Part shown: piece by piece, positions 1,436-35,981 of the stretch
How positions within the stretch are numbered: position 1 is the stretch's first letter
How the letters are laid out: the number at the start of each line of letters is the position of its first letter
Origin: Squalus acanthias
Lineage: Eukaryota
Assembly: GCA_030390025.1 (NCBI GenBank)
Contig: CM059432.1
Span: forward strand, 66,280,001 to 66,344,000
Reading direction: 5' to 3'
Length of the DNA: 64,000 nt
The notes under the pieces: model-generated
What the model was told of the DNA's origin: nothing
What the model saw: only the letters and a program-made list of their open reading frames with translations
Database searches by the model: none
Translations under genes and position numbers: made by a program

Positions 1436-1473
1436 TTACAAGCTTTCGGAGCTGTCGCTCCTTCCTCAGGTAA
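1436..1473 (-). ncRNA. Minimal hammerhead ribozyme motif (inverted copy)
   Basis: Exact reverse complement of 1746-1783. Confidence 0.8.
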
Positions 1474-1745
1474 GTTAGCAGTGAGAGAATCTCCCAGAAT
1501 TCACAATTTAAACACAGACAAAATCTATTCAAATCTTTCCCTACATCAAAGACACACTAAGAGCACAAGAACCAACACAAATTGACAGGATATGCAGCCA
1601 GCAGGTGGTTTGACACGTTGGACCCCCTGGGACACATCTCATTGTCTTGGCTGTGCTCTTAGTGTGTCTTTGATGTAGGGAAAGATTTGAATAGATTTTG
1701 TCTGTGTTTAAATTGTGAATTCTGGGAGATTCTCTCACTGCTAAC

Positions 1746-1783
1746 TTACCTGAGGAAGGAGCGACAGCTCCGAAAGCTTGTAA
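1746..1783 (+). ncRNA. Minimal type-I hammerhead ribozyme motif (Penelope type)
   Basis: TTAC CTGAGGA A GGAGC gaca GCTCC GAA AGCT T GTAA: CUGANGA and GAAA cores, stem I TTAC/GTAA, stem II GGAGC/GCTCC, palindromic AGCT in place of stem III. Confidence 0.8.
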
Positions 1784-4714
1784 AATTAAATAAATCTGTT
1801 GGACTATAACCTGGTGTTGTGCGACTTCTCATAAAAAAAGCAAACCAAGCACTAGGGTTTATTTCTAGAGGGACAGAATTGAAAAGTAATGAAGTTATGC
1901 TGCACTTGTATCGAACCTTAGATAGACCACACTTGGAGTACTGCATACAATTCTGGTTGCTATATTATAAAAAGGATATAGAGGCACTGGAGAGGGTGCA
2001 GAGAAGATTAACAAGGATGATATCAGAAATGCGAGGGTATACCTATCAGGAAAGGATGAACAGGCTGGGTCTCTTTTCTCTTGAAAAGAGAAGGCTGAGG
2101 GGTGACCTAATAGAGGTCTTTAAAATTATGAAAGGTTTTGATAGAGTAGATACAGAGAGAATGTTTCCACTTGTGGGGAAGAACATAACTAGTGGCCATC
2201 AATATAAGATAGTCACCAAGAAATCAAATAGGGAATTCAGAAGAAACTTCTTTACCCAGAGAGTGGAGAGAATGTGGAAATCGCTACCACAGGGATTGGT
2301 TGAAGCGAATAGTATAGATGCATTTAAGAGGCAGTTAGATAAGCAGAGATTGCTAGATTTGTGGATATTAAGGGAATCAAGGGATATGGGGATAGTGCAG
2401 GAAAGTGGAGTTGAGGTAGAAGATCAGCCATGATCTTATTGAGTGTCGGAGCAGGCTCGATGGGCCGAATGGCCTACTCCTGCTCCTATTTCTTATGTTC
2501 TTAAGTTCATATGAGGGAGAAGGGAATAGAGGGTTATGCTGATAGAGTTAGATGAGGAAAGACGGGAGGAGGCTCGAGTGGAGCATAAATGCCGGCATGG
2601 ACTGGTTGGGCCAAATGGCCTGTTTCTGTGCTGTATATCCAATGTAATCCTATGTAATTTATTTAAAATGTCACGTGAATACATTAATGTTTGGCTGCTA
2701 ATGTCGCCAATGATAATTTCTAGGTTAGAACTTGTACAAAGGGTTTCACTCTTGCATCAACAAGCTGGAAGGGATTGCAAGAAAGGATGATTGAGGCCTG
2801 GACGCTGGACTCATTAATGAAACAGCTAGCACTGTAATGGGAAGATGGTCAGGCTGCTATTCTGGAATAATGAAATCCAACCTTTCTGGTGATTTTGTGA
2901 ACAGTATGGGTAGGATCTGTTTTTACTTGCATTAAACTGACCAGCCTGGATTTTTTGATTGTCATTTAAAATGAATCAATTAACACCAATGTTAAATTAA
3001 CACTGATCCAAAAATCTAGGTTACTTTCTCTCTCAGCCTGTAGTGTTAAGGGACAGATAATAGTGGATACTCAGATAACAGAGATGAATTAAGAGCCGCC
3101 ATGTCATTCAAGTCCACTTTAACCGCAACTGTTTCCCCTGACTATTCCTAGCCTTCTCCTGGACAAAACTGCTATACAGGTACGGCAACTAATTTCCACC
3201 AATGATAAGTCCATATAGCTGCACTCAGCAAAATCCCAGCTCCCATTCCTACCCTGTTGTAATGATTTATTTTTGTTCAAATTTAAATCAGAATTACACA
3301 AATATTTTAAAATATGGTTTTGAAAAGAAATTAACTGCAACTCAAACATTTAACAACAGAAGCTTTGATTTATACTTTGCTTGCAGGAAATTAGACTTGC
3401 AATGACCGATGCTGGATGGCATTACCTGGGGAGAAGGTATGACAACACATGGTCAGTTATCCAGGGTTTTATGCCTAACATGACTGGGTTGCTGAAGCTC
3501 CAACCTTCAACTGATGGAACCACCATTCAATGAGGTATGGTGTGTGTCCATGCTGCATTCAGACAGATGGTGGCAATACAGTCAAGCATTTTATGGTGAG
3601 TTGTGCTGTTCACTGTGCTGCTCTTGAGGAGCCGCTGGTACCTGCCATCCACCCACACTTGTCAGTTCTCTAACTTGATAGTGACTATCATCCTGGCGGG
3701 TGCTGGGGGGAGGGGGCGGGGGGCGCGGAATGAGGCAATTGGGTCTCTTTGGGTAAAAGTGGCTCCAAGATGATACACCAGCGATGGAAATTTAGAACTA
3801 AGTCAACTACTCTGTGGCAGACTTGGTAATCTGATACTTGCTCTCGGGAGGTCTGCAATACTCTAGGTTACTTTTGCTGATTGAACAGTCCAGTCTGGCT
3901 CACTATTGAAATCTAGAGGGATAGACCTGTCACCAAGGGTTGGGATTCTTTCATTCAGCTCTAGATAACCATGCAAACTAATGTTCTAATGGGTAGGGTG
4001 GTTGCTAGCTGGACAAGCAGCAGGAAGTTTACCAATGTTCGTTACTGATATGTTGCATGATTTTAGCTAGTTAAATTTAACAGTATCCCTGTACACACTT
4101 AGGGTCCCTAAGCCTTGGCTCTACCAACCTGCGTCTAAACCCTCAGGAGTTAGATAAGTGGGGTGTTTCCCAATGGGCTATAGTGCACTCCAAGTTCAGT
4201 AAATGGATACCACAGGAGCAGATTTCTCAATAGCTTGATTTGGAGCCCCTTAAAGATGGTGATTGGTTTCCATGCATGTCCAACATATGGCTGACCAAAC
4301 AGTATCAAAACAACCAAGAACTTACATGGTCCTGCACTGCATCAATTTGTAGATTAATCCATATTCAGTGTAACCGATATGTACAATTTTGATTATGCAT
4401 AATTACAATTTGCCAGAATATTCAAAATTCACTGTTGAAAATCTCTGCCGACAGCATGAATTGGTTAATGCCAGCATTAAAATAATGAGCAGATAAACTT
4501 CATATAAACATGGTAACACTCTGTTACGAATATCATATAGCATTTCAATTAATAAAATAGTTAAAAGTAGCCTCCATTTTTAAAAGTTTACAGAGACAAA
4601 TTTCCTTCGGTGACTTAAATCTGGTGGGAAGAATTCCTACGTTCACTTTTTCAAGCAAAATCATAAAAGTGTTCTTAAAAAAAACTTCTATAATTTTGTT
4701 AGAAATAGTGATAT

Positions 4715-4879
4715 GGGAGTAATTTGAACTTAACCTGCCAGGCAGGAAATGAGCAGGTTCAATCTGACCGCCCTTTAACACCCTGCCCAATTTTATTCCC
4801 CATCGGGCAGGGTGTAAAATGGATGGTCTGACTGAACCCCCTCATGTCTTACTCAGTGGGTTAGGTTCACATTAACCCC
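4715..4879. mobile_element. Short, degraded palindromic MITE (Harbinger-like ends)
   Basis: Ends gggagtaatttgaacttaacc / ggttaggttcacattaacccc, central stem acaccctgccc...gggcagggtgt. No clean TSD. Confidence 0.55.
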
Positions 4880-6127
4880 AAACTTTCTGCTACATTTAAA
4901 CTGTTGCTAGAATATAGCAACCAAAGGCAATCTTTCTCTATGTGGCACTGTTACCTTTCCTTACATCACAGATTCTGTTAAATAATACAAATCAAAATAC
5001 TTCCTCAAACAAAGCATAATATTTTTTTTTGCCTTAACACCCCAGTCACTAAGTTGTAATTTCAACTTACCTTTAACATTGCACTCAAGTCAAAAGTAGA
5101 ACATATTTGTAAAACTTGCCTTAACTCCAATATAAAAGCCTCTGCCGGAAATGTTGAAACAAACTTGCTGACCAACTTTGTGTTCTGTTATTTACTCGCT
5201 GTACAAAGAAAATGCTGTCTATTCAAAACACATTTCTAAACTCGTTCCACAGAAACTGAGTGAACAAATGATTTCATGCCCTGAGCTGTAGTCATCCGAT
5301 GAGGCCCAGTGATAGCTCCAGGGCATGGAACCAAGTGACACGGGCAGTAATCTTTACAGGGAGCTTTTTGTGCACTCTTTCGAAAACTTTTTTCAAACTT
5401 TGACAGTGATCTTTTCACTCATTCCTTTCAAAGTGCTCTACTTCAGTCTTCAGCTGTCATTATGTATTTTATTTTTCACTTTTGTCATTGCACATTTTGA
5501 AAATTAAAAAAAATCTCCCCCTCTATCTCCCACCTTCTCCTGGAACTGCTAATTCTTGCTGGGGTATGGTTCCAGGAGTGCAGATCACCACTCAGTATCT
5601 CACCCACATGGACATTATTCATGTGTGAGAATGAGCAGTAACTGGATAGTAATGAGGAACAGAAAGCCTGGCTGGGTTTTTCCCTCCTTGGCCCAGTGGT
5701 GCTCTGGCCAACTGTAGGCTTTGAATTTCCTGTGTGGCGCATCTTGGAATTTATACCCTAAAATGCCCCCATTCCCACGCTCATTTTCCCGATCTCAAGA
5801 TGCATCGGAATTCCCTGCCAATCTAATTAGAATATGTGTAAAAATGGGTGTAAATTAGTGTAAACAATCGGGTGCTCGAGGAAATATATATATATTTCTT
5901 CTTTAAGTATGAAAATTAAAGTTTCACCTCATTCACCCATCATTCATGCACATTAGCATAGCATGTTTAAGAACCTGCAATCGGAGAAGCTTTTCAATAT
6001 TTAATGTGACTTATACTTATACCATAAAAATGCATTCAAAGAAACAGAAAATACAGTGCAGGTCTCAGTGAAGATACATTTTTAAATAGCTCAAAAACTG
6101 CAGATAAAACACCAGAAAAATGACTAT

Positions 6128-7852
6128 GGCTGCGATTTGACGAACCTCGGCGAGTCCGTGGTGTACGATGTCAGTGGCGGGTCCCGACCCCGCTGCTGGT
6201 TCCATCCCGGCCTCTGAAATGAATTTCCCCTGATTGGGCTTGTTAAGCCCGCCCAGCGAGTTTCCCAGCCAATTAGAGGAAGTGGGTCTGGTGACGTCAT
6301 TTGATGACGTATCATCAGCCGGTATCCTTAAAGAGACCATGGCCAACTTTAATTTGACATTTGTGCTGTCAGTGTTCCACAGCATTGAGGTGCTGCAAAC
6401 ACTGACAAGCACTGCACAGAGGTGCACGGCTGCACCCAGGTTCTCCCATGTCTCCCTCCCTATGCTTATAGAGGGAGTCACAGCACGTAGGGTGGTCCTC
6501 TTCCCTTCCCATGGGCGGAAGAGACCTCCCCAGGAGATCAACACAGCCTGGTTGCAGATTGCACAGGAGGTCACAAGCAGGGATGTGGTCAGGAGGACCT
6601 GGATGCAGTGCTGCAAACGTTTCAATGATCTCAGTAGTTCACAAAATGTTAGTACAAAACCACACTCAGCCTCATCCTGCTGTGCCTCTCATCACGTCCC
6701 CATCACTCTGCCTTCCCTACCCTACTCCTGCACACCCTTACTCACACCAACTTATCTTGCACCTCCACCCATCCCTCTCTATCAATATTATCACATCCCC
6801 ATCTCACTAGCCACCTTTCACACTCACCTTCATCCTAGTCCAATCATACCAACTACAACACACAAGGGTAGGCATTTGGGTGTTTTATGCAATGTTCATG
6901 TAAAGTTTCTGTTAATGTGGTGTCAAACATTGAAACCTTTATTTTCAATACTTTGCATTCTTGGACACATTTGTGTGCACCTTTGGAAGTGGCTTAGTGA
7001 GTTGCATTGAATGGTGAGACATAATGGTACCCCCCGCAATGGCGATGAGTGTGAAAGGAATGGCTTGGGCATTGTAGAGATGCTTTATGGTGTTGGTGTG
7101 GAGTGGTGTCAACCTGGCGCATCATGTGAAGTAAATCTGGCCATGTTGAGGCCATCTCTGGCCTCCCGGACAGCACTGTGGTCGGGTGCTGATGCCCTGT
7201 GTCTTGTGCAGCATCAGTTGATTGCGGAGAAGGTTGGTGTTGTTGTTGTTGGTGCTGCTGGTGTGCCTGGTGCTGCTGGTGTGTCTGGTGCTGCTGTTCG
7301 TGGTGGGATTCTGAGGACCAAAGTGAGAGTTTCAAGGGCACCCATGCTGATGGAATAGATGGCAGGTGAAGTAGAGATGACAGAAGCGATCTGTCAATGG
7401 TGGGGAGGTAATGAGGTCAGACTGGATGGAGACTCGTGTAAAGACTTGCAACATCCTGCATCTGGAGTGGAAATGCAGTTTAGAGAAGCTAATGGTTAAG
7501 GAAACATTTCTCAATCAGCTGGGAGCTTTGACTTGACATTTGAAGCTGTCAACTCATCAGCTGATTCAATGGCAAGTGACCTCCTGCCTCAGCTTCACAG
7601 ATGAGGCCTAGGCACAGCAGGAAACTGGTGGGGCAACCTGTCAAATCCAAAAAGCTGGGAAAATCCACTAATGATTTTAATTGCCTCCCCCGCCGCTGCG
7701 TGTCGGGTCTGCTCAAAGCTGACAGACCCACCATTTGGTAAAGGCACGTGGAGGCGGGTTTGCAGCGGGGTCCCGACCCACTGGGAAAAAAAACACTTTC
7801 CCACCCGACCCGCCACCGATCGTGCCTGCTGACCTCCTGCAAAATTCAGCGC
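6128..7852 (+). mobile_element. Internally deleted PIF/Harbinger element (Myb/SANT exon 1 on +, nuclease N-terminus on -)
   Basis: TSD TAT (6125-6127, 7853-7855). Imperfect TIRs ggctgcgattt / aaaattcagcgc. Myb/SANT-like peptide APRFS...WLQIAQEV...RRTWMQCCKRFNDL. The Q/H-rich minus-strand ORF 6994-7341 resembles 41610-41978. Confidence 0.85.
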
Positions 7853-9084
7853 TATGTTTCCTGCTGCACCTGATAATCTGGTTGTAATTTTAAGAGAGTC
7901 TCTGTGCAAGCGCAGAGGAAACTTTCAGGAAACTTGTATATGAGGCTCTATAACTTGGGGCATGGCCAGTTTTATGGATGGAGATTGAATTGGTCAGAAT
8001 TGATAGATCGATAGCATACAAGATTGAGGAAATTTGGGCATATTGTAGTTATGCGTGTAACTCACTTAGGCCCAAAATTCCATGATCTTTTAAGTCACAT
8101 TATTGGTTTGCGCCTTGGTTACATGTGTCTCTGGGTGCAAAAATGGAGGAAATGCAAGGCGGCAATGCTTAACCCCTGTCCCAGCTAAGATTAGCGAACT
8201 CACCACAGACTAGAATAAAACCTGGGGCCTTTTGGTCTGCATGAGTTTACCTTGCCATACATTTACCCACTTAGTCATCAGGCATGCTGCATTTTAAACA
8301 TTTATATTATTGAATGTAACTTTTTTTCCCTATTTTATATTTTCTCACTCTTACAGTTGCTGAGATAGGGTTTAACATGGAATATGAGATAAGGTGATGC
8401 ATATGTAATACTTGGCAGGCAAAATTGACTTTTTATTGTAACACAATCATTGCAGCATAGTCAGAACAACTATATCTGAAGATCATAAAGTATTGCTGGA
8501 ACTAATAATATATACATCATTAATCTGACGGAGATAAGCAATAGTACACAAGAGGCCAGTGGCAACTCACACCCCATACCAGCCACAAATAGTTAATTCT
8601 TTAGACCACCAGAGATATTTAAGTACACTGGCCCAACAGACAACCACAGATGCAACAGACCCCAGAATATGTTCCCACGCTGATTATAAGGCCATACACC
8701 ACCTAGCCTGGATTTTAAATGGCCTGTGAAGAAGGGGAGTGTGAGAAGGTGCGAAAGCTAAACCTTCAGCTCTAAAGCCTCCACCTATGTTACGAGGAGA
8801 CTTTCCCTCTAATTACATTTCCCCTGGCAGGAAGTAGTCAGTCTCTGATTTGCACCTTCCCACTACATTGCTGCTGTGATTAGCAACTCACTATAATGGT
8901 AGGCACCAGGCGCAAGTCCAAATCTCACCACAATGTAGTATCATGTATTGGTGCTAGCACACTATATAGCAGATGGGCCTTCTGCTATCCCAGAGCTCAA
9001 GGTCTTAGCACATTAACTCATCTGTTGCCTAAAAAGAATAGGCAACTGTGAATAAATGCAAAGCTCGCTATTAAAGTGCATCAT

Positions 9085-9395
9085 TTTATTTGTTCTCTGG
9101 ATATGGGTAATATTGTCATGGCCACAGTTACAGCACATCCATAGTTGCCCTGAGATGGTGATGGTGGGCCTTGAAGTGCTGCAATCCTTGTGTTGGTGGT
9201 GCTCCCACAATGGTGTTAGGTAAGGAATTCCAAAATTCTGAACCAGCTACAATGAAGCAATGGTGACGTATGTCCAAGCCTCGGTGATGATAGTGTCATT
9301 GATGATCAAAGGGAGATGACTAGGCTTCACCTTCTTCGTGATGGTCATTACCTGGCACTTATGTGGTGTAAATATTCCCTGCCACTCTCAGCCCA
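9085..9395 (-). mobile_element. Degraded 3' end of a LINE related to 24630-24945 and 47285-47765
   Basis: Recognisable gttgccctgagatggtg...gtgttaggtaaggaattcc...tatgtccaag similarity. Confidence 0.55.
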
Positions 9396-13205: not shown

Positions 13206-14113
13206 CAGCCATGCCCCTGCCAAGAATGGCCAGCACATCTCCTCAATGGGGGTGAGGTGATGCAGGCGAGTCTGTCCCCCACCAGTTAAGTTCTACAGGC
13301 ACTGGTTATGCACCACCTTTTCCTGCAAGAGAAAGGGAAGTGTGTCAGTGAGTGTGGTGTAATGTGTTTGGGTCATGTATCTGTAATGGTTGAATAACTG
13401 ACAGTTGTTCAAGCTCTGAGATGTGGGTGTGAGGCTTGCAGCAGTAGTAAGTATATGAGGGTGAGGTGATGCTACGAATGTGAGGTATGAGTCGTGTTTG
13501 GTAGACATTTTTGGTAGGTGAGTGATGGGGGAGTCGTGCATTGAGCGGTGTGTGAGGCTAGTGGTGCAGTTGGTAGGAGACGGCTTTTGAAGATGCATTC
13601 ACTGACCTTGACCACTCGTCTGAGGCCATTAAACTGCTTTGGGCACTGGAGCCAAGTCCTGGGGGCAACACTGCTGGCAGTGACTGCCTCGGCGATCTGG
13701 TCCCACATCCTTCTTACAGTGTTTCTGAAGGGCCTACTGGCCCCCTGTGGGTAGAGGACATCTCTTCGAGTGTTCATGCCCTGCACAAAGGCCTCGAGTG
13801 CTGTGTCCGAGACCCGAGGTGCCCTTTCCCAGGCCTATTGAGCCATTTTGCTTTGTTTAAAATTTTTGATCACCAGAAGGTAGCTCACCTTTAAGAAGTG
13901 CAGGCTGCCTTTAAGAGGCACAGGATGTGCAAACATTGCAAACTTCGGCCCCTTGCTGAGCGCACAGCCAGTCAGTTGCACATTCAGCGCTGGGCTGTGC
14001 GCTGCTATCATCATAATTAGCAGACAGCACAAATTTCACATGCTGCCTGCACACCTTTCAATGGGCGGGCCGATTCCTGCACCTGTTTTCGGGCCTAATC
14101 CAATTTCACCCCC
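13206..14113 (-). mobile_element. Harbinger fragment: one terminus plus Myb/SANT exon 1, intron and part of exon 2 (pseudogene)
   Basis: Minus-strand terminus tta|gggggtgaaattgg. ATG at 13846 with an early stop. RRDVLYP...MWDQIAEAV...RTWLQCPKQFNGLRRVVK|GTCAGT, then acceptor ttgcag|EKVVHN...TGG. Confidence 0.8.
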
Positions 14114-14413
14114 TAAGTATCGGTGAGCTTTTGCTGGAGGGTGGAGAAAGAAGTTCCAGGCAAAAATGAAATGAAAGGAAGCCCAATGTGAAGGCATGAA
14201 ATGGAATAGGTGGGAAGTGATGTTGCTGCATGAGTTGGAAATGAGGAGGGTTTCCTGTTTGGCACTCTCCCCAGAGCAATGCACCTTGTCTGTTAGGAGT
14301 TGACAGCTAGGTTCAACATACAGTACTGTACATGGTACCTATGATGCACTGCACTCTTGTGAACCCTATCATCTTGTGCTATGTCCTATCAAGCTGATGC
14401 CTCCTTTCCACAC

Positions 14414-15719
14414 TTCTTAGGCAGTCCCTTGGAACCGAGGATGACTTGCTTCAACAATAAAAATGAGTTCTCAGGTGACTGATGAGTCCAATGTGGGACC
14501 TACAGTCTCTGTCACAAGTGGGGCAGACGGTGGTTGAAGGGGCGGGTGGCTGGGGTTCTTGGGTTGACGTGCGCTCCTTCCGCTGTTTGCGCTTGGCTTC
14601 CGCTTGCTCCCGGCGAAGAGACTCAAGCTGTTCGGCACCTTCCCGGATGCTTCTCCTCCATTTTGTGTGCTCTTGGGGCAGGGATTCCCAGGTGTCGGTG
14701 GGGATGTTGCACTTTTTCAAGGAGGCTTTGAGGGTGTCCTTGAAGTGTTTCCTCTGCCCACCTGGGGCTCTCTTGCCGTGTCGGAGCTCCGAGTAGAGCG
14801 CTTGCTTTGGGAGTCTCGTATCGGGCATGCGGACGATGTGGCCCGTCCATCGGAGCTGATCGAGCATGGTCAAAGCTTCGATGCTGGGGATGTTGGTCTG
14901 AGCGAGAACACTGACGTTGGTGCGCCTATCCTGCCAATGGATTTGCAGGATCTTGTGGAGGCAGCGTTGATGGAACCTCTCCAGTGCTTTGAGGTGCCTG
15001 CTGTACATGGTCCATGTCTCTGAAGCATACAAGAGGGTGGATATCACTACTGCTCCATAGACCATGAGCTTGATGCTGGGTTTGAGGTCCTGGTCTTCAA
15101 ACACTCTCTTCCTCAGGCGACTGAAGGCTGCACTGGCACACTGAAGGCAGTGTTGGACTTCGTCATTGACATCTGCCCTTGTTGACAGTAGGCTCCCGAA
15201 GTATGGAAAGTGGTCCACGTTGTCCAAGGCCTCGTCATGGATTTTGATAATCGAGGAGCAGTACTATGTGGCAGGGGCAGGTTGGTAGAGGACATTTGTC
15301 TTACAGATGTTTAGTGTAAGGCCTATGCTCTCGTACGCTTCGGTGAAGGTGTTGACGATGGCTTGGAGTTCGACCTCCGAGTATGCGCAGACGCAAGCGT
15401 CGTCTGCATACTGTAATTTGATGACAGAGGATGGGACGAACTTGGATCTGGACTGGAGGTGACGGAGGTTGAACAGTTTCCCGTTTGTTCTGTAAATTAG
15501 CTCCACTCCAGCGGGGAGCTTACTGAGGGTGAGATGGAGCATTGCAGCCAGGAAGATCGAGAAGAGCGTTGGTGCGATGACACAGCCTTGCTTGACCCCG
15601 GTCCGTACGTGAATTGGGTCCGTGGTGGATCCATTGGTCAGGATCATGGCTTGCATGTCATCATGAAGCAGGCGGAGGATGGTGACAAACTTTTGAGGGC
15701 AGCCGAATTTGAGGAGGAG
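14414..15719 (-). mobile_element. RTE-clade LINE, 5'-truncated (RT C-half, C-terminal CxxC/H-rich end, 3'UTR)
   Basis: ORFs 15264-15749 (GVKQGCVIAPTLF, QYADD) and 14451-15227 (LYASETWT, LRWTGHIVRMPDTRLPK, CPTCDRDCRSHIGLISHLRTH). 3' end ggactgcctaagaag. Confidence 0.92.
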
Positions 15720-16403
15720 AATGACGAATGTATTGTCCCTTCCAAACAAGGCTTCTGTTACTTGTTTGATGCATCTGTGGCGAGTTGACTGACTGATGCG
15801 ATATATGGTGGTGACTTGGAAGGACCTGATGGCTTAAAATTTTAATGCTGTGTGACCTCCATCTGTAAAGGAACAGCTGTCCCTGTGGCACACTTGTTCG
15901 CCAGCAGTAGATGGCATATCTGTGTGGCAATCTGCTTTGTGAAGTAGAGGTCGCTCCTGACATGCCTAGTAAGGAGTATCTGGATCAGTAAATGTGGGTC
16001 CTAGGGTAAGGACCGGTGCATATATAATGCATGACATGTAGTCACATCTGCCTTTTTTTGTTCCTGCAAGAACTGCTCTTTCTCCTCCAAGTCTAGGAGC
16101 ACCATTGGAAGCACCAAAGGAATTTGCATTCTGCCCACTTTGGTTGCAGCAAGTGAAATAACAACTGGAAGTAAGATGGTTGTACGAAACAAGAGATTGA
16201 AATGAAAGTCTTGCCATGCAAAGTAATTAGGCTTAATTAACAACAAACATGAGTTCACTAATGAAATGGTCGGTGAAGAAATATAATAAGCAGCCTCCAA
16301 ATCCTAACATCAAGTCTTTATTGCCACTAAGGCAGTAGAGATTCAGAACACATTGCCATTTAACCAGTAACAATTCACACCACTTATCACCACTAAACGA
16401 GCC

Positions 16404-20168: not shown

Positions 20169-20245
20169 AATACTCCAATTGAGGCTGAACCAGTGTTTTA
20201 TAAAGGTTCATCATAACTTTTGTACTCTATGCCTCTATTTATAAA

Positions 20246-20427
20246 ATTGAGAGGTCGCACAACACCAGGTTATAGTCCAACAGTTTTATTTTAAATCACA
20301 AGCTTTCGGAGTTACAACTCCTTCGTCGGGTGAAGTGAGGAGATACAGAATCGTCAAAGCATATATAGAACGTCGGTGTCGATATGCGCGATCTTCTTGG
20401 CGATACACCGGCATCTCCGCATCATGA
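20246..20427 (-). mobile_element. Short Penelope-like insertion with hammerhead-like motif (20296-20333)
   Basis: 14-bp TSD cctctatttataaa (20232-20245, 20428-20441). Minus-strand TCAC CCGACGA A GGAGT tgta ACTCC GAAAGCTT GTGA. 5' end tcatgatgcggagatgccgg, as in the 1348 copy. Confidence 0.85.
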
Positions 20428-22262
20428 CCTCTATTTATAAAGCCCAGGATCCTGTATGCTTTTTTAACTGCTTTCTCAGCCTGCCCTGCCACCTTCAACA
20501 ATTTGTGCACATATACCCCCAGGTCTCTCTGTTCTTGCACCCCCTTTAGAATTGTACCCTTTAGTTTATATTGCCTCTTCTCATTCTTCCTACCAAAATG
20601 TATCACTTCGCACTTTTCTGCATTTAATTTCATCTGCCACATGTCCACCCATTTCACCAACCTGTCTCTGCCTTCTTGAAGTCTATCACTCTCCTCCTCA
20701 CTGTTCACTATACTTCCAAGTTTTGTGTCATCTGCAAATTTTGAAATTGTGCCCTGTACACCCAAGTCCAAGTCATTAATATATATCAAGGAAAGCAGTG
20801 GTCCTAGTACCGACACCTGGGGAACCCCACTCTATACCTTCCTCCAGTCCGAAAAACCATTCACCACTACTCTCTGTTTCCTGTCACTTAGCCAGGTTCG
20901 TATCCATGCTGCCCTTTTATTCCATGGGCTTCAACTTTGCTGGCAAGCCTGTTATGTGGCACTTTGTCGAATGCCTTTTGGAAATCCATGTACATCACAT
21001 CAACTGCATTGCCCTCATCAACCCTCTCTGTTACCTCATCAAAAAACTCACACAAGTTAGTTAAACACGATTTGCCTTTAACAAATCCGTGCTGGATTTC
21101 CTTGATAAATCCACACTTGTCCAAGTGACTGTTCATTTTGTCGCAAATTACCTTTTCTAAAAAGTTTCCCCACCACTGAGGTTAAACTGATTGACCTGTA
21201 GTTGCTGGGTTTATCCTTACACCCTTTTTTGAACAATGGTGTAACATCTGCAATTCTCCAGTCCACTGGCACCACCCCTGTATCTAAGGAGGATTGGAAG
21301 ATTATGGCCAGTACCTTTGCAATTTCCACCTTTACTTCCCTCAGCATCGTAGGGTGCATCCCATCCGGTCCTGGTGACTTATCTACTTTAAGTACAGCCA
21401 GCCTTTCTAGTACCTCCTCTTTATCAATTTTTATCCCATCCAGTATCTCAACTACCTCCTCTTTCACTATGTCTTGGGCAGTATCTTCTTCCTTGGTAAA
21501 GTCAGATGCAAAGTACTCATTTAATACCTCAGCCATGCCCTCTGCCTCCATGCGTAGATCTCCTTTTTGGTTTCTAATTGCCCCCCCCACCCCCTTACTA
21601 CTCGTTTACTATTTACATGCCTATAGAAGACTTTTGGATTCCCTTTTATTTTTAGCTGCCAATCTATTCTCATACTCTTTCTTTGCCCCTCTTATTTCCT
21701 TTTTCACTTCCCCTCTGAACTTTCTGTATTCAGCCTGGTTCTCACTTGTAATCTCAACCTAACATCTGTTATACGCCCCCTTTTTCTGCTTCATCTTACT
21801 CTCTATCTCTTTCGTCACTCATGGAGCTCTGACTTTGGTTGCCCTACCTTTCCCCCTCATGGGAATGTACCTTGACTGTACCCGAACCATCACCTCTTTA
21901 AAGGTAGTCCAGTGTTCGATTACAGTTTTGCCTGCCAATCTTTGATTCCAATTTACCCAGGCCAGATCCGTTCTCAACCCACTGAAATTGGCCCTTCTCC
22001 AATTAAGTATTTTTACTCTAGATCGCTCCTTGTCCTTTTCCATAGCTAATCTAAACCTTATGATACTATGATCACTATTCCCTAAATGTTCCTCTACTGA
22101 CACTTGCTCCACTTGACCCACCTCATTCCCCAGAACCAGATCCAGCAATGCCTCCTTCCGCGTTGGGCTGGAAACATACTGCTCAAGAAAGTTCTCCTGA
22201 ACACACTTCAGAAATTCATCCCCTTCTCTGCCCTTTACACTATTACTATCCCAGTCTATATT

Positions 22263-26029: not shown

Positions 26030-28269
26030 AGGGGAAAAATTTGTTTTCGACCATTTTGTGGCGCTAACATCACCTGGGCGCTAACTTTAGCGCCCGGCGC
26101 TAATTACAGCCGGCGACTGCAAAATTGAGTTTTAGCACCCCTAGAGGGAAGTGGAGCGTTAAATCAAGTGCTACACACTCCTCTTAGGGCGCTAACGTCA
26201 GAGCGGGGCGCAACCGCAGAACGCTACTCAAGCTCAGGCGCTGTCAATTACAAGTACTCAGACAGACTGTCGCCTTCCAGTTCTTAAAGGGGAGGGTCAA
26301 TCATGCTGCACAGCTTCACTCTGATAATTGCTGCTTATGAACTGGGCCTGCAAGGAGGTGCAATCCATCAACCACAAATCTCATGGCTGATCAGAGGCCC
26401 AGGGAGAAGGCTCGCCGGTTCAGCGACCAGGCATTGGAGGTTCTGGTCGCGGCCGTGGAATGCCGACGGGCAGTTCTCTTCCCAGACACTGGCAGGAGGC
26501 CATTGCCGCAGGACTTCAGGAGGATGTGGAGGGAGGTCGCCCAGTATGTCTCGGCCAGAAGTGCGGTCCACAGGACTCCCACCCAGTGCTGCAAGAAGTT
26601 CAATGACCTTACTCGGGTGGTCAGGGTGAGTACATGCTTCAAAAATCTGTACATGCCACCATTTCAACCTCACTCTATGCACAGACGGTATAAATCGCCA
26701 AATCCCCAACACTCACCCACCAACTATGCCCACCTGCTAAAACTGACATCCACATCTCACGCCTTGCATACATTAACAGCTATTCAACTATGGTAGGCAC
26801 ATCTGCCAAACACGTGGCTGCACACTCACTCACACGCTGTCCTTTTTCTTGCAGGCCAAGCTTGCTCATAACAGGTGGGAGCAGCAACACACGGGAGGAG
26901 GTCAGGCAGAGCTGCAACCCCTTACAGACCTGGAGGAGCGAATGCGCATCATCATTGCGGTCCAGGTCGTGGGTGCTATGGCGGTCGGAGATGTCGACCC
27001 CCTTGGGGACAACAATGGTATGTTCATCACCACTTTCTCTTTTCTCATACCACTTCTCCCTCACATCACAAGCCCTTCCCACTTTCCATCTAAGTATACT
27101 GTCTCCATTCTTTGCTCCCTTCCTGTCCCCCTCCCCTGATGTTAAACCCACTCTTGTGCCTTTATGCTTTCAGATAATCAGCCACCATCTGAGCAGCCTG
27201 TCCCTCAGCCTCCCAATGGCAGCGACACGGAAGAGGAGGAGGAACAATAAGCCAGAGCCTCACTGCCTGTGTCTCCCGAGGGCGAGACATCAGATAATGG
27301 GACCATGCGGTCGCTGGAGGGGAGCCGAGGAAATGTGTCTGATGTGGGTGAATCTCAAGGACCCAGCGGGCTGCAGCAATGCCATAGGGAAAGGGAAGCA
27401 CGAGTTCTGCTGCACAGGATTTGGATGAGGACGTCGATGTGGAGGCATTGACCAGACGGGCAATGGGCATGCAATGGCAAGGGTGCCCGAGAGCATGGAT
27501 GCACTGGCTAGAAACATGGAGGAGTCCACCTCCAGCATTGCACTCATCTCTGCGCAAACCATTGAGCCTATCCTTGACAGTTTGCTAGGGATGGTTGCCT
27601 TGCAGAGAGACCGTGGGGACCCAGACCTCATGCCGCGTGTAATGGGTGAGGTGGCAGCAGCTATTGCAGCACAGGCCGAGGCAACGCAATGGCTTAGTAC
27701 TGTAATGGAGTCAGTGGTTGGTGACATCCAATCTCAGATTGCTCTCATGCAGTCCAGTGCCAATACAGCCCCCATTAAGTGTTGGAAACGTTGCACTATC
27801 AAATGTAACTCAAATGAAAGTGATACATTTTTGTCAGTTGCAAAACTCCTTCAAGTAGAAAAAGCTCAAATCAGTAAAATCACCTGTCTACTTCTGTCAA
27901 ACTGACAAGGCAGCATTGTTTGCCGACTAAAAAAAAAACGGATGTTCACGCCTTTATATAGAGCTCCTCCAGTACTCAACCGACTGCAAACCGCCTCTTC
28001 TACCTGTCGTTGCTAATGGCAGGCGCTGAGGCAGGGGACGAGAATTAATTTCCAGTCCGGGGCGCTACCAGGGCGATGCGCGGCCAGATGCCGTCACGCT
28101 CTCCAGCCGCAGGTGGGCGTGGTAATAGCGGTTAGCGCCGCCGCAAACCACCAGGTGAATTTCGCCGGCAGCGTTAGCATCGCAGCGCCCGGGCAGTAAG
28201 TCGCTAGTGCCCTGTTAGTGCCTGCCGGAGGCGCTAACTGGAGGCGCTAAGGTACCCAATGTCTAGCCC
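26030..28269 (+). mobile_element. Non-autonomous Harbinger carrying only the Myb/SANT gene
   Basis: Left end aggggaaaaatt and both subterminal regions match 10525-11255 and 42286-43092. No matching TSD found. Confidence 0.85.
26383..27770 (+). pseudogene. Three-exon Harbinger Myb/SANT-like DNA-binding protein gene (exons 26383-26625, 26855-27017, 27174-~27770)
   Basis: Exon 1 MADQRPREKARRFSDQALEVLV...WREVA...RTPTQCCKKFNDLTRVVR|GTGAGT. Acceptor ttgcag. Exon 2 AKLAHNR...TGGG...G|GTATGT. Acceptor tttcag. Exon 3 has an in-frame TAA and a frameshift. Confidence 0.85.
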
Positions 28270-28270
28270 A

Positions 28271-28969
28271 AAAATTGTCTTCGGTCCCCGCCACAAACTC
28301 TGTTCCCTAGCCACTGACTCCTTCCCTCTCCCTGGCAACTTTCTGAAGCTGAACCAGACTTTTCACAACCTTGTATTAGATTTGACCCAGAAATGAGCTC
28401 CCGACCACATATCCGTGCCATCAATAAAACTGCCTATTTCTATCTCTGTAACATTGCCCGATCCACCCCTGCTTCAGCTCATCTGCTGCTGAAACCCTCA
28501 TCCATACCTCTGTTACCTCTAGATTTGACTATTCCAATGCACTCCTGGCCGGCCTGCCAAGTTCTACCCTCCATAAACTTGAGGTCATCCATAACTCAGC
28601 TGCCCGTGCCCTAACTTGCACCAAGTCCTGTTCACCCATCAGTTCACTGCTCACTGACCTACATAGGCTCCTCCAATTCTGGCCTCTTGAGCATCCCTGA
28701 TTTTAATCACTCCACCATTGGCGGCCGTGCCTTCAGCTGCCAAGGCCCTAAGCTCTGGAATTCCCTCCCTAAACATCGCCGCCTCTCTACCTCTCTTTCC
28801 TTTTTTAAGACGCTCCTTAAAACCTACCTCTTTGACCAAGCTTTTGGTCATCTGCCCTAATATCTCCTTATGTGGCTCAGTGTCAAATTTTGTTTAATAA
28901 CGCACCTGTGAAGCACCTTGGGATGTTTTACTATGGTAAAGGCGCTATACAAATACAAGTTGTTGTTGT
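28271..28969 (+). mobile_element. L2-like LINE 3' end
   Basis: Degenerate 'VTSRFDYSNALLAGLP' and 'AFS...LWNSLP...FLRRSLKPT/LKTYL' segments. Tail aaggcgctatacaaatacaagttgttgttgt. Confidence 0.85.
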
Positions 28970-29506
28970 AAGCTAGGATTTTTTTTCACCTACAATAAAA
29001 GTGATCAAATATTGGGTTTGTTTGAGTTTTTAAGTTCTAAACATCCCACTGCACCCTCAATGCACCCCTCATCTTCAGATGTCATTAGGCTTATATTCAG
29101 GGCTGTTATTGAGTGATCAGCTTTATGAAGGCTGTATCAGATTTTGTGAAATTGTTGGTCAGTGGTTGCTAGTTTCCTAGCTTGGCATGTATGAAAAGGT
29201 CCATGATGCCAAAAGGCACTGAGACCTTGGAGAAAAAGGTGAAGCTTTCTGATTCTCTCAGTGGTGACATCATTAACACCAAGGGAACTCCCACAGGCTC
29301 ACCGTGAATACTAAATTATGGGGAAACCCAGAAGTTCTGGTACGAATGGCCATACACTACAGGTCAGGTGGGTGTTCCACAGCTCACCATTCCTGCCACT
29401 AACTCACTCAAATAGAACTGTTTCCCTCTGGAAAACGGATTCAATTTGCAGTGTAATTTGTGGGCATTAATGAAAATCTGCAAGACACGCACATGAATCA
29501 TGAGTA

Positions 29507-29870
29507 AAGAAAGAACTTGTATTTATATAACACCTTTCATTACCTCAAGATGTCCCAAAGCATTTTACATCCAATGAAGTACTTTGAAGTACAGTCACTG
29601 AGGTAATGTTGGAAACATGACACCCAATTTGCACACAACAAGGTGCCACAAACAGCAACGTGATAATGACCAGATTATCTGTTTTTAGTGATGTTGGTTG
29701 GTGATATCGGGAGAACTCCCCTGCTCTTGTTCAAATAGTGCTATAGGATCTTTTACGTCCACCTGAGAGGACAGACGAGGCCTCGGTTTAACGTCTCATC
29801 CGAAAGACAGCACCTCCAACAGGGCAGTGCTTTCTCAGTACTGCACTGGAGTGTCAGCCTAGATTTTGTG
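29507..29870 (-). mobile_element. Deu-domain SINE (SacSINE1/AmnSINE1-like), 5'-truncated
   Basis: cctcggtttaacgtctcatccgaaagacagcacctcc and gatcttttacgtccacctgag segments. Minus-strand 3' end aggtgttatataaatacaagttctttc. Confidence 0.8.
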
Positions 29871-31056
29871 AGTATTGGCAGTACTCCTACAAGAGTGTGG
29901 CACTCTCAATGCGGTTTTCAGTGCTGAGGGTGACGACACCTCGGGGGAGTGCAGTCTAGAGCGTATCCACGGCACTGTGGGGCAAATGACTGCATATGGA
30001 GGCACAGCAAAGTGTAGAACTGCAGTAGTCATAGGGGATTCGATAGTCAGGGAGATAGACAGGCGTTTCTGCAACTGCCGATGTGATTCTTGCATGGTGT
30101 GTTCCCTGGTGCCAGGGTAAAGTACCTCACTGAGAGGGTGCATAACACTTGAGGGGGGTAGGAAAAGAGCCAGAAGTCGTGGTCCATGTGGGAACCAATG
30201 GCATAGGAAGGAAAAAGGTTGACATCCTGCAGTCGGAGTTTCAGGTGCTGGAGAAATGGTGCAGGAGGGATGACTTCAGATTCCTGGGCTATTGGGAACA
30301 GTTCAGGGGGCAGGAGAGACCTGTTGAAGGTGGACGGGTTGCACCTCAACAGAGCTGGGACCACAATGTCCTTGCATGAAGGTTAACTAGTGCTGTGGGG
30401 GAGGGTTTAAACTAATTTGGCAGGGGCATATAAATGGGCACCAGGATGAAGCATTAGAGAGGAGAATCAAGGACTAGGAGAGACAAATAGCATTAGAGGA
30501 AAGAATATTTCAGAAATAGGAGGGCTCAGACAGGGGCAAATGCAAGGCATTTGGATTGGTCTGGCGTGCATGTACGTAAATGCACCTAGCATGGTAAATA
30601 AGGTTGGTGAGCTGCAGGCACATGTTGGCACATAAGACTATGATATAGTGGCAATAACAGAGACCTGGCTCAAAGAAGGGGAGGATTGGGAGCTTAATAT
30701 TCCTGGTTACAACGTATTCAGGAAAGATAGGGAAGTAAAAAAAGGAGGGGGGCTGGCAGTATTGATCAAATAAACTATTATAGCCCTGGCGAGGGATGAT
30801 GTAATTGAGGGGTCAAAGAGAGTCTATCTTGTTAGAATTGAAGAACAATAGAGGAGTTATTACGCTACTAGGTGTATACTATAGGCCACCAAAAAGTGCG
30901 AAGGAGATAGAGAAGCAAATTACAGAAAGATGCTAGAATTACAGAGTAGTGATAATGCGGGACTTCAATTATCCTAATATAGACTGGAATAGTAACAGTG
31001 TAAAGAGCAAAGACGGGGAGGAGGGCTAACTTCAGTGAGTTGAGAAGGGATCTAGC

Positions 31057-33766
31057 CAAAGTTCCCTCTAATTTTTTTATACTGAGCGGGCCTCAAACTT
31101 CTTTGAGCGCGGCCTTTTAAACCATGGGCAGATTTTACTACAACAACAACTTTTACAACAATGATAGCAACAGCAACCACTTAAAAGCATATATACAGTA
31201 ATGCCATATTGCCACCCCACCGTTTCAAATCATGAGACAATCAGACAAGGTTCGATTCAAGTTTAACATAACTTCTCTGCTTTTGAATTCTATTCCTCTA
31301 AAAATGAGGTCAATGCTTTATTTGCACTTTTATGGCTTTTTTAACCTGCGTTGCTACATTTAATGATTTGTGAATCTATACCCCTAGATCCCTTTGCACC
31401 TCTACTCCATTTAGACTCTTATTTTCCAAGGGGTAGGTCGCCTCCTTATTCCTCCTACCAAAATGCACCACCTCACACCTATCTATATTGAAATTCATTT
31501 GTCATTCTGCAAGTTTGTTTACAGTAGAATTAATTAAATGCTTTTACAAACATGTACAACTCTATTAAAAAAATTACTTGTCAGAAATGACCGGGATATA
31601 AAAGAACTGCATAATAATGCATTAACACTTCAGAAATGTCACCCTGTTACACAGTTGTGCATAGACATAAACAATCCAAAAGCCCAAGGTAAGCTGAAAG
31701 AGGCATATCTATTCATGCAATTTGTATTAATTTTATAGTTTTCAACGTATTATCCCATCCCTCATGTCACTATAGCAGTGGCTGCACAAGCATCAGGAGT
31801 AGCGGCTTTCCTATACATGTTGTATGTCCACATCAGTACAGTAATTAGAATATTATTCACAATGCAACCAGACACCCAACAAATATAAAGTGCTGTAGTT
31901 CTTTAGTTCACAGTATTAAAAAGAATTGAAAAAAAATGGTATTTTCAACTTCAATCACTTCCATTAATAAATGTGGTCTTCTTGAACCAGCACCCCCCCC
32001 GCATGTAACATGTCAGAAATGCAGCACTTATTCACAAGTGCAGAAAAACACATACACAATTTGTGTTACCAAATTAAAAACAAAAAGTAGGAAAAGCTAT
32101 GATTTAACAGAAATAAACACTCATCTTTCTTCCTGGACAGAAGAACCAATCAGACTGACTTGGAAATGTTTACTAGTATGGTGACATAAAGATGTTAATT
32201 TACAAATTTTGCTTCTAATGTTTTGCTCTCAAACATTCTCCCCAATATTAATCCCTGCTCTTAAATGTAAGGAAGTCTGACTACGATTGTACAGGGCTTT
32301 GGTGAGACCACATCTGGAGTACTGTGCACAGTTTTGGTCTCCTTATCTGAGGAAGGATATACTTGCTTCAGAGGCGTTGCAACAAAGGTTCACTAGATTG
32401 ATTCCTGGGGTGAGAGGGTCGTCCTGTGAGGAGAGATTGAGTAGATTGGGCCTATACTCACCGGAGTTTAGAAGAATGAGAGGTGATCTCATAGAAACAT
32501 ACAAGATTCTGAGGGGGATTGACAGGGCAGATGCTGAGAGATTGTTTCCCCTGGCTGGAGTGTCTAGAACTAGGGGGCATAGTCTCAGGATAAGGGGTCG
32601 GCCATTTACGACTGAGATGAGGAGGAATTTCTTCACTCAGAGGGTTGTGAATCTTTAGAATTGTCTACCCCAGAGGGCAGTGGATACTGAGTCGGTGAGT
32701 ATATTCAAGGCTGAGATAGATAGATTTTTGGATTCTAAGGGAATCGAGGGATCTGGGGATCGGGCGGGAAAATGGAGTTGAGGTCGAAGATCAGCCAGGA
32801 TCTTATTGAATGGTGGAGCAGGCTCGAAGGGCCGTATGGCCTACTCCTGCTCCTAATTCTTATGCTCTTATGTTCTTAAGTGAAATGTTTCAGCCTTTGC
32901 ATGTTAAAATTGGGGACCAAAGTGAATGGCCCAAAAACTGGTGTCAAATCAAACAGTTGATCCAAAGGCATTTGAGCCATAAACAAAGGGTAGCAGTTAT
33001 ATTTGGGCTATGTACTACAGTATCATTGACATCACTGGCACAACAGTTTTTTTTAAAGGGCCAATCGGGTCCCTTGAAAAGGGGGACTGATTTTCTGGTA
33101 ATGCTTGCATTTTTGGCTAACACCCATGCCTGGACCCTTTGGCTAATTGCTTGTTCAGCTAGGATATGCAGGCATACTGGCTGCTTTGCATAAACCAGGC
33201 TGAGAATGAGGGAATTCCTGACATCAGGGGCCATTTTTGGGGCAGCTGGAAGTTCTGTCTCAAACAAGTCCCCACAGAAACTATCAACGAGACCTGTTGA
33301 ATCCACATCCTGAGACAATTTCTGGCCTCTCCAAAGGACTTCCAGGGGACTTACCAGTGTGGCCAATAGCCCTGCAGATTAGTAAAATAATGTTTCTTTA
33401 ACTTAGCACTACGCTTGTTACTGGCCAGGACTGCGTGCTGACAATCACTCAGGTTGCTGAGGTACTTACTGACTTGCCTTTCTTTGACTGTCTAATAACC
33501 CCCTCTGGCTGCACTCACACTCCCGTAGCACACTGAAGCAGTGGCTGGACTGGCCTGCCAATCACACGGCTGTCAATCACACAGCCTGCCAATCACATGG
33601 CTGCCAGTGAGGTGCGGTTATGGCACAGCTGCCTGCCTCGAGTCAGCGTCCCCGCAAAGCTTCAGTGTGCCACGGGAGCGCGAGTGCGTGGCCCATTTAT
33701 TTAACTGCTCGGCCCTATCAAGAGTGTTGCGTGGCCGCGCACGCGCACAACTTCAGCGGAACAGTG
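31057..33766. mobile_element. Non-autonomous hAT-like DNA transposon
   Basis: 8-bp TSD gatctagc (31049-31056) / gatctggc (33767-33774). Imperfect TIRs caaagttccctctaa / ttcagcggaacagtg. Contains CR1 pieces at ~31250-31520 (-) and 32263-32878 (+). No transposase recognised. Confidence 0.75.
32263..32878 (+). mobile_element. 5'-truncated CR1
   Basis: ORF 32287-32658 YRALVRPHLEYCAQFWSP...FFTQRVVNL, CR1 3'UTR, tail ttcttatgctcttatgttct. Confidence 0.93.
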
Positions 33767-35056
33767 GATCTGGCCCAGGTAGATTGGAATCAAAAATTGG
33801 TAGGCAAAACAATCATTGAAAAATAGGAGGATTTCAAAGAGAAGATGGTTCGGGTACAGAATGGACACATTCCTACAAGGGAGAAAGGAAGGGCATCCAA
33901 AACCAGAGCTCCCTGGATGACAAAAGATGTAGAGATTAAAATGAGACAGAAAAAGGAGGCTTATGACAAATGTAAGGTTTGTAATACAGTAGAGAACTAA
34001 GGTGAATATAGAAAGTACAGAGGAGATCTATAAAACAGAATAAGAGATGCAAAGAGAGTGTATGAGAATAGATTACCAGCTAACATAAAAGGGAACCTAA
34101 AAGTCTTTCATAATCATATAAATAGTAAAAGGGTAGTTAAAGAAAGGGTGGTGCCAATTGGGAACTAAAAAGGATGTGCTGTATCATTCCATGATTCTAT
34201 GATCAGACGTTTTCTCACAGGATACAATGAAATTCAGAGGAAGACTTGCCCTAGACAGCTTCAGCAACCTCTTGGTCACTAGCTCAAGAAGCACATTAGG
34301 CCTCATGATGAGCATGCTTCCCCAACCAAGAAAGCACTATTCCTGAGCTCAGCCAATGTCACTTTTGAGCCGATCAGTCAATTAGGGCAAAATTTTTACC
34401 TTTGAGTGGGTTGAAGTGCGGGGTGGGATTGGGGGGGTAGTGGTGGTGGCTGCCTAGCGGGTCGCTGTCACGAACGGTTCATCAGCGCACTCTCCACTGG
34501 GTGTTAAACTTAACTAGATCACTTGACTGAGTCATGTGTGTTTCCCAGCCAATTAAATGGAGCGGGTCTGATGACGTCACAGATTCACAGATGACTTGAC
34601 TTCAGCTCAACTATTTAAAGGGGAAGTGTACAGATGAGAGTTGAAGGTTGCTGGAGGTGGTCAAGAGGTGCTTGTAAGAGGTGCCTGTCGGTGTTACAGC
34701 CAATACTTTGACTTAGACTGTGAGGGTGCAATCATTTAGAGGCAATGATGCAGTCTGAGTGCCAGAAGGCAGCGCCCAGGTTTTCAGATTCCTTCCTGGA
34801 AATTCTGCTCTGGGGAGTGAGAGCAGGGAAGGAGGTCCTCTTCCCTGGTGATGGCAGGAAGAGGCCAGCCAGTGAAACCCAGAGGGCATGGCTGGAGATT
34901 GCACAAGAAGTGAGCAGCAGGGATGTTGTCACCCACTCCTGGATTCAATACAGGAAGAGATTTAATGATAGAACATAGAAACATAAAACCATAGAAACAT
35001 AGAAAAATAGGAGCAGGAGTAGGCCATTCAACCTTTCGAGCCTGCTCCATCATTCA

Positions 35057-35377
35057 TAGAAACATAGAAACATAGAATCTAGGAGCAGGAGTAGGCCATT
35101 CGGCCCGTCGAGCCTGCTCCACCATTCAATACGATCATGGCTGATCATCCAAATCCAGTACCCTGTCCCTGCTTTTAATCTCCACAGTACACATATCCCA
35201 CCCTACCCCCGTAACCCCACGTATTTAATTCCCCCTAACATATCCCATCCTATCCCCATAACCCCACATATTTAATCCCCCCCTAACACTAAGGGTCAAT
35301 TTATCATAGCCAAATTAACCTAACCCGCACATTTTTGGACTGTGGGAGGAAACCGGAGCACCCGGAGGAAACCCACT
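35057..35377 (-). mobile_element. 5'-truncated V-SINE with a long CR1-derived tail, inserted in a CR1 3'UTR
   Basis: TSD attca (35052-35056, 35378-35382). Nearly identical to 41255-41570. Confidence 0.88.
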
Positions 35378-35898
35378 ATTCAATATGATCATGGCTGATC
35401 CTCTATCTTAATACCATATTCCCGCGCTCTCCCCATACCCCTTGATGCCTTTTGTATCTAGAAATCTATCTATCTCCTTCTTAAATATATTCAGTGACTT
35501 GGCTTCCACTGCCTTCTGTGGTAGAGAATTCCAAAGGTTCACCACCTTCTGAGTGAAGAAATTTCTCCTCATCTCAGTCCTAAATGTCCTACCCCGTATC
35601 CTGAGACTGTGATCCCTCATTCTAGACGCCCTAGCCAGGGGAAACATCCTCCCTGCATCCAGTCTGTCTAGCCCTGTCTGAATTTTATATGTTTCAATGA
35701 GATCCCCTCTCATTCTTCTAAACTCTAGTGAATACAGGCCTAGTCGACCCAATCTCTCCTCATACGACAGTCCTGCCATCCCAGGAATTAGTCTGGTGAA
35801 CCTTTGCTGCACTCCCTCTATGGCAAGTATATCCTTTCTTAGGTAAGGAGACCAAAACTGCACACAGGTGTGGTCTCACCAAGGCCCTGTATAACTGT

Positions 35899-35981
35899 TC
35901 ACCTGAGGAAGGAGCGATAGTTCCGAAAGCTTGTGATTTCAAATAAAACTGTTGGACTATAACCTGGTGTTGTGCGACCTC
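35899..35981 (+). mobile_element. 83-bp Penelope-like insertion with hammerhead motif (35899-35936)
   Basis: TSD taactgt (35892-35898, 35982-35988). TCAC CTGAGGA A GGAGC gata GTTCC GAAAGCTT GTGA, then aataaa and gttggactataacctggtgttgtgcgac. Confidence 0.88.

Follow-up and report, generated by a model that had tools for sequence, protein, structure and literature searches.

Minimal hammerhead ribozyme motifs in probable remnants of Penelope-like elements in a 64,000-nt stretch of the Squalus acanthias genome

Introduction

Insertions of Penelope-like elements (PLEs) are described as recognizable by a truncated 5' end, by copies in inverted orientation and by a tail of 30-40 bp that is present at one end (PMC8557442). 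The pseudo-long terminal repeats (pLTRs) of metazoan PLEs carry minimal hammerhead ribozymes (min-HHRs), for which the consensus NNN-CUGANGAH-GNNNNN-loop-NNNNNC-GAAAN-palindrome-NUH-NNN was published (Cervera & de la Pena 2014, PMC4209133). For PAc, the Poseidon PLE of Anolis carolinensis, it was reported that the protein nicks both strands at AT-rich DNA, that reverse transcription starts at two internal sites bounding the tail, and that the hammerhead cuts only with protein and is dispensable for insertion in vitro (Frangieh et al. 2024, PMC11167929). Here we analyzed 64,000 nt of Squalus acanthias (GCA_030390025.1, contig CM059432.1, positions 66,280,001 to 66,344,000), hereafter the window, in which a sequence-only reading had proposed three mini-PLEs with hammerhead ribozymes. 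The window motifs fit the published consensus. With a probability of roughly 0.85, the three loci hold real minimal type-I hammerhead motifs within likely 5'-truncated and partly inverted by-products of autonomous, endonuclease-bearing PLEs, probably of the Neptune type, that are likely inert at these positions.

Minimal hammerhead motifs at three loci

The three 38-nt strings described before were recovered letter for letter, and one additional copy, identical to the first of them, lies in the mirror arm of the same insertion (Table 1). We refer to the insertions, and to the motif subfamilies they represent, as A, B and C. In standard numbering the core reads C3-U4-G5-A6-N7-G8-A9, an extra A, a 5-bp stem II and G12-A13-A14-A15.1-G-C-U16.1-U17. 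The CUGANGA...GAAA...UH core is exact in both arms of A and in B, and C deviates at position 4 only (U4C). The extra base after position 9, the G10.1-C11.1 pair, a stem II of 4-8 bp and a stem I of at least 3 bp are all present, and minimum free energy folding recovered stems I and II in 3/3 motifs. Each of the three carries the palindrome AGCU at 15.1-16.1 without a stable stem III, the computed energy of an AGCU duplex being -2.5 kcal/mol.

A descriptor composed after the motif had been seen, which permits C at position 4, asks for CYGANGA, at most one extra base, 4-8 bp in stem II, GAAA-N-N'-U-H and at least 3 bp in stem I. It matched the window four times, each time at a known motif, and had no match in 300/300 dinucleotide shuffles; a chance origin of the motif was rejected. 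By itself, GAAAGCTT occurs at chance level in the window (6 observed, 4.1 expected). The check by Rfam hammerhead models that had been suggested did not succeed, as cmscan of the window yielded no hammerhead match at E<=1. Curated Rfam hammerhead models expect a closed stem III.

By their sequence features, the three loci carry genuine min-HHR sequences of the kind described in 2014. The earlier assignment to PLE-type minimal type-I hammerheads with a palindromic AGCU as stem III, in several subfamilies, is borne out by these features, and standard hammerhead numbering likewise predicts the cut after GAAAGCUU, as previously stated.

Architecture of the insertions

All three insertions interrupt CR1-like long interspersed nuclear element (LINE) ORF2 fragments, that around B being of the opposite strand. 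They have a common 3' end about 50 nt beyond the predicted cut site and differ in their 5' ends, with lengths of 482 bp (A), 83 bp (B) and 182 bp (C).

The arms of insertion A form a 181-bp inverted repeat of 100% identity (1387-1567 / 1652-1832), and the tail, which borders the left arm only, stops at CATCATG, whose ATG (1346-1348) overlaps the target duplication. The center gave no PLE protein match by tblastn. Identity of the arms is lost at 1567/1652, yet partial similarity runs on for about 20 nt. Insertion C is composed of three pieces. Contigs from public runs agree with its pLTR end up to 20369, break at 20369 and 20372 and diverge beyond, and loose ends mark the following 33-nt scrap as a separate piece; the third piece, an inverted stub, matches the end of the tail of A at 91% identity across 22 nt. 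Both long ends, those of A and C, terminate at CATCATG, and from its sequence this ATG is probably the start codon of the open reading frame (ORF). The junction at the short end reads AT^AA in each of the three targets, if microhomology is allowed for.

Table 1. Positions of the motifs, insertions and their parts in the window
Feature	Positions	Strand	Remarks
Insertion A, 482 bp, fold-back PLE remnant	1348-1829	.	two inverted pLTR 3' ends inside CR1-like LINE ORF2 fragment; target duplication 13 bp, 1335-1347 and 1830-1842
One-sided PLE tail, ~39 nt	1348-1386	-	left arm of A only; same tail at loose ends/joints in public runs
min-HHR, mirror copy of 1746-1783	1436-1473	-	from descriptor and repeat comparison; predicted cut between 1440 and 1439
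Center of A, 84 nt	1568-1651	.	non-palindromic, joins the two copies
min-HHR, subfamily A	1746-1783	+	TTAC/GTAA, CTGAGGA, extra A, GGAGC/GCTCC, GAAAGCTT; predicted cut between 1779 and 1780
Insertion C, 182 bp, three pieces	20246-20427	-	inside CR1-like ORF2 fragment; target duplication 14 bp, 20232-20245 and 20428-20441
5'-truncated pLTR end of C	20246-20369	-	terminates at short 3' end
min-HHR, subfamily C	20296-20333	-	U4C core CCGACGA; predicted cut between 20300 and 20299
33-nt scrap, reading IAKKIAHIDTD	20372-20404	-	probably ~codon 16 of PLE ORF (peptide reading)
Inverted PLE-tail stub	20405-20427	+	ends at putative ATG (20424-20426)
Insertion B, 83 bp, hammerhead and pLTR end only	35899-35981	+	starts at 5' edge of stem I; target duplication 7 bp, 35892-35898 and 35982-35988
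min-HHR, subfamily B	35899-35936	+	TCAC/GTGA, GGAGC/GTTCC, one G-U pair; predicted cut between 35932 and 35933

Further copies were traced in contigs of the public runs X1 and X6 (organism A; X6 is RNA only by guess) and X10 (organism C). None of the runs found to carry the sequence is recorded as RNA, which says nothing about expression. Both 3'-end classes, short and long, are present in these runs, and other copies have the inverted tail stub joined at 20281, 20296 and 20311. C-like depth amounted to about 2.5% of shared-tail depth in X1 and to less than 1% in X10 and X6; all such depth figures derive from contigs, are biased to C-like sequence and are not copy numbers. The raw-read DNA run X21 contributed 6 partial reads on the stretch. 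A rise of depth toward the tail was rejected as a signal of cleavage because 20311 is where contigs of other subfamilies are clipped. The loose ends reveal one more family, in which stem II is intact and the loop has 3 nt. Contigs that bear the tail still have a depth of about 80% several bases into the target duplication of C (20428-20437), which suggests that the PLE master continues with the same letters past the long end of C and that the join would have been made via some 7 nt of microhomology.

Truncated PLE copies are indicated by the common 3' end with differing 5' ends, the target duplications, the one-sided tail, the inversion in A and C, and the position of the motif downstream of a GIY-YIG-type ORF in L002, a metagenome contig treated below. 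Traits of endonuclease-bearing PLE insertions are seen in each copy: 181-bp arms with a tail of about 39 nt in A, an inverted 23-nt stub in C, and truncation in B. Under a different origin, for which we see little likelihood, the units would be mini-PLEs that lack an ORF and are not autonomous, or else retrozyme monomers; in either case a PLE protein supplied in trans would have copied their own short RNAs. Such an origin would suit the lack of an ORF in A, B and C, the neat 83-bp unit of hammerhead plus tail with a duplication seen in B, and the great abundance of the shared tail in the public runs; pLTR-derived non-LTR (long terminal repeat) retrozymes have moreover been described from vertebrates, including one chondrichthyan, in a preprint (bioRxiv 10.64898/2026.07.22.740005). 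It is opposed by 5' ends that vary among the three copies and among the joints in public contigs, by the absence of the head-to-tail tandems that define retrozymes, by the inverted architecture of A and C with a one-sided tail, and by the probable ORF scrap in C. The 5' ends, the inversion and the scrap also leave the earlier designation of the loci as ORF-less mobile units unsupported. Retrozyme identity as such was rejected, as none of the 4 motif copies in the window is in tandem.

All three insertions lie in the same ~85-nt part of the CR1-like ORF2 C-terminus (KKA...GFI.RG...LYRALV). Copies of this stretch occupy about 810 of the 64,000 nt and hold 22 of the 559 ATAA/TTAT sites in the window; the chance that two further insertions fall into it is about 0.002, a post hoc figure for n=3. 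Possibly this stretch is an insertion hot spot. The flanks of public contigs appear diverse (agreement 0.39-0.48 in X1), which argues against a strict insertion target.

Link to Penelope-like elements

Scanning metagenome contigs with the hammerhead pattern returned two near-identical loci, L001 and L002. In L002 the motif (TCAC/GTGA, GGAGC/GCTCC, GAAAGCT, A at 17) is located about 750 nt behind the end of an ORF that carries a CX4CX2C linker, WYIGET and GLNRD, and in L001 it lies beside an inverted reverse transcriptase (RT) piece. Homologues of the L002 ORF, turtle and shark proteins included, contain RT (PF00078) and some also GIY-YIG (PF01541); a single ORF with RT and C-terminal GIY-YIG is present in relatives of L002 and absent from the remnants A, B and C. 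Both contigs come from marine metagenomes and represent near-identical Neptune-like PLE pLTRs; within each there is a junction or inversion of the kind usual for PLE insertions. The tail and the inversion point to PLE pLTRs as the probable setting of the window motifs as well, the setting seen directly for the related motif in L002 and L001. The pattern of the shared tail had 0 matches in the metagenome, viral and prokaryote collections, and a viral or bacterial origin was rejected. The Neptune-type CX2-5CxxC linker was observed in L002 and in protein P0002; on sequence grounds, the autonomous parents were probably of the Neptune type.

The 33-nt scrap in C probably derives from the start of a PLE ORF. 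A loose end abutting it (one contig each in X10 and X6) continues in frame as IKYLQRCKKA, and by eye 11/21 positions of the combined peptide are alike to residues 16-36 of the PLE-like protein P0121. The scrap gave a blastp E of 0.008 to residues 16-30 of P0071, which was chosen post hoc among 258 PLE-like proteins, and blastp of its reading against P0121 did not match the N-terminus.

Several points weigh against assigning the loci to truncated copies of autonomous PLEs. The start of insertion B coincides with that of stem I, which could be expected of a short unit with defined ends. The window holds no PLE ORF, tblastn with the 258 proteins having matched only CR1-like and DDE-transposase sequence; L001 and L002 are only distant relatives of the window subfamilies; and neither of two Pfam scans named a GIY-YIG domain in L002 itself. 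Across the 258 proteins, the 11-aa scrap reached a score of 27, the median for shuffled versions being 28; it is not significant alone, so that its assignment to an ORF is a lead. The contig origin of the depth figures counts on the same side. As a separate observation, the 5' end of B is the first base of stem I, and stalling of RT at the hammerhead could favor truncation there.

A possible hairpin was noted in the tail of A (1346-1428(-)), where GTTGGACT pairs with AGTCCAAC and encloses the short 3' end. L002 (1378-1470) has a comparable GGACG/CGTCC stem at the matching place, and the L002 contig also ends at ATG. Folding z-scores were not significant (-0.37 and -1.05 in the window, -1.98 in L002). 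By analogy, this hairpin may correspond to the stem-loop where PAc begins reverse transcription.

Covariation and selection on the fold

The stem changes between the motifs are as earlier described: 9/9 pairs are kept in 3/3 sequences, with two two-sided changes and one change from G-C to G-U. Free variation of the loops, also claimed before, applies to loop II, where 3/4 columns vary, and to that loop only. The covariation of the three motifs was equaled by 51/500 shuffles, and by 27/500 when the distant L002 was added as a fourth sequence; in simulations, five random substitutions preserved all pairs with a probability of 0.003-0.10, depending on the share of transitions. Covariation is thus present but thin, and not statistically established. 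In C-like contigs, changes at 20316 and 20317, whose linkage was deduced from their equal depths, made up 39-41% (X1), 63-65% (X10) and 64-76% (X6) of depth; at a threshold of 8%, these runs list no change at 20312 that would partner them. From this pattern, stem II of a sister subfamily seems to comprise 4 bp and to carry a loop of 6 nt, the loop-closing fifth pair being open.

It is conceivable, if doubtful, that the paired changes are not a sign of selection on the ribozyme fold, that they are a small number of inherited mutations of master lineages, some introduced by hairpin-templated repair, and that the C motif has lost catalytic constraint. This would account for the occurrence of just two two-sided changes, at a level matched by the shuffles, for core and stems that vary more (7/34 columns) than the 3' tail (1/34), and for the unpartnered changes of the sister subfamily. 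Template switching can produce compensatory-looking changes (10.1101/2021.04.15.439925), and insertion of PAc in vitro is reported not to require cleavage (PMC11167929). Against it, L002 retains all nine pairs and the core although its flanks barely align, and the same architecture is preserved across about 40 animal species in Fig. S3 of PMC4209133. Selection on the fold is therefore credible from its conservation across animals, and the window does not prove it. The earlier proposal that the RNA fold is under selection remains plausible for master elements; for the window copies it comes down to two pairs, beside a sister subfamily whose fifth stem-II pair is apparently open.

The CCGACGA core of subfamily C

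The CCGA core, common to a multi-copy subfamily, is the only unusual feature of the three motifs. CCGACGA predominates in the C-like contigs of three runs, which stem from two organisms. At 20328, the canonical base accounts for a minority of summed depth in X1 (14,063/116,741), X10 (724/4,023) and X6 (254/903), and one 84-nt contig of X10 with a depth of 757 shows no difference to 20262-20345. Decay of a single copy was rejected as the source of this core on account of its predominance. With respect to the two options given before, a natural variant or a dead motif, the core is a variant of subfamily rank found in more than one organism, whether or not it can cleave. The observed-to-expected CpG ratio of insertion C (1.41 versus 0.42 for the window) indicates that it is young. 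Since the variant C lies in a CpG whose decay would give back the canonical core, CpG decay does not explain it. In a viroid, U4C is a natural variant with lowered activity in vitro that supports infectivity (PMC3088659). No report of U4C in a PLE was found in the literature searched, which did not cover Lunse et al. 2016, a possible source on core variants.

Judging from these sequences, the CCGA core was probably inherited from the master of a young subfamily, with weakened cleavage. A more far-reaching proposal, which we put forward tentatively and hold to be rather improbable, is that a young PLE subfamily whose core is of the U4C type has multiplied in two organisms or more, despite CpG decay and with both stems kept, so that either U4C plus the extra A works when the PLE protein chaperones it or the hammerhead is kept as a fold without the need to cleave. 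If true, the U4C subfamily would offer a natural experiment on whether cleavage is required of PLE hammerheads.

Possible mechanism and activity at the loci

By extension from the work on Anolis PAc, a PLE protein would nick both strands at an AT^AA site, and reverse transcription would be primed inside the element's own RNA at two neighboring points. The short one would lie about 50 nt beyond the predicted cut, the long one at the putative ATG. Single priming at the short site could yield B. Two primings in opposite directions, one from each site, could have met to give the fold-back A and the three-piece C, the latter with a template jump. A role for the ribozyme would be confined to the master RNA, on which the 4-nt AGCU palindromes may be able to pair with the help of tandem pLTRs or of the protein of the element.

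The nearest motifs on the same strand are 34 kb (+) and 19 kb (-) apart, and a transcript through A is computed to fold into one long hairpin (-359 kcal/mol) with the sense motif buried in a 181-bp duplex. Given the weak pairing energy of the AGCU duplex, these distances and the perfect duplex around the motif of A, cleavage at these loci is unlikely. The intact cores of A and B and the identity of the arms of A might be taken to mean that one or more copies serve the host as an active ribozyme, for example by cutting a read-through transcript; we regard this as highly improbable, because no dimer partner is nearby, the sense motif of A lies in duplex, monomers are reported not to have cleaved in PMC4209133, and all three copies sit within LINE debris, with no host-gene domain among the 103 ORFs scanned, a subset of the window frames.

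The window also holds many CR1-like fragments, an RTE-like LINE fragment (14451-15833) and Harbinger-type remnants with Myb/SANT and DDE_Tnp_4 domains (13475-13834, 26341-26793, 40375-41051).

Comparison with known systems

Truncated and partly inverted PLE copies with min-HHRs add one host lineage to the pattern described in 2014, which alone is of small weight. A and C are clear genomic traces of the two-start-point, two-strand insertion model. The activity of PLE hammerheads is low in vitro, protein-assisted in PAc and not required for insertion in vitro, and a multi-copy subfamily with a weakened core offers a ready comparison for the question of their role.

By all sequence features checked, the window motifs belong to the class of metazoan PLE min-HHRs (PMC4209133). 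They share its type-I layout, the CUGANGA core, the extra base between 9 and 10.1, the G10.1-C11.1 pair, the 5-bp stem II, the palindromic 15.2-16.2 without loop 3, the AU-rich 3' flank, and the occurrence of many subfamilies per genome, mostly as single or opposite-strand copies. In Fig. S3 of that paper, the turtle entry likewise has GAAA-GCUU and the lamprey entry UCAC/GUGA; no chondrichthyan was seen in that list. The core variant named in the paper is U3-A8; U4C was not seen among its listed cores. The viroid hammerhead with U4C (as cited in Perreault et al. 2011, PMC3088659) has the same core substitution and is a full hammerhead with tertiary contacts, whereas C appears from its sequence to be a minimal, dimer-dependent motif.

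Non-LTR retrozymes, as far as described (Cervera & de la Pena 2020; Li, Clavereau & Pollet 2026 preprint), are likewise ORF-less, derive from pLTRs and carry a type-I hammerhead, but form head-to-tail tandems with a hammerhead per unit, whereas the window copies are single or tail-to-tail and variably truncated. PAc (PMC11167929) resembles the window copies in its two neighboring 3' ends that define a tail, its AT-rich target and a hammerhead near the pLTR-ORF junction. Its ORF starts in stem II, with the tail within the ORF, whereas the putative ATG here is located about 90 nt past the cut site, at the far end of the tail. L002, finally, has the CX2-5CxxC linker of Neptune and Nematis, which Poseidon is described as lacking (PMC8557442).

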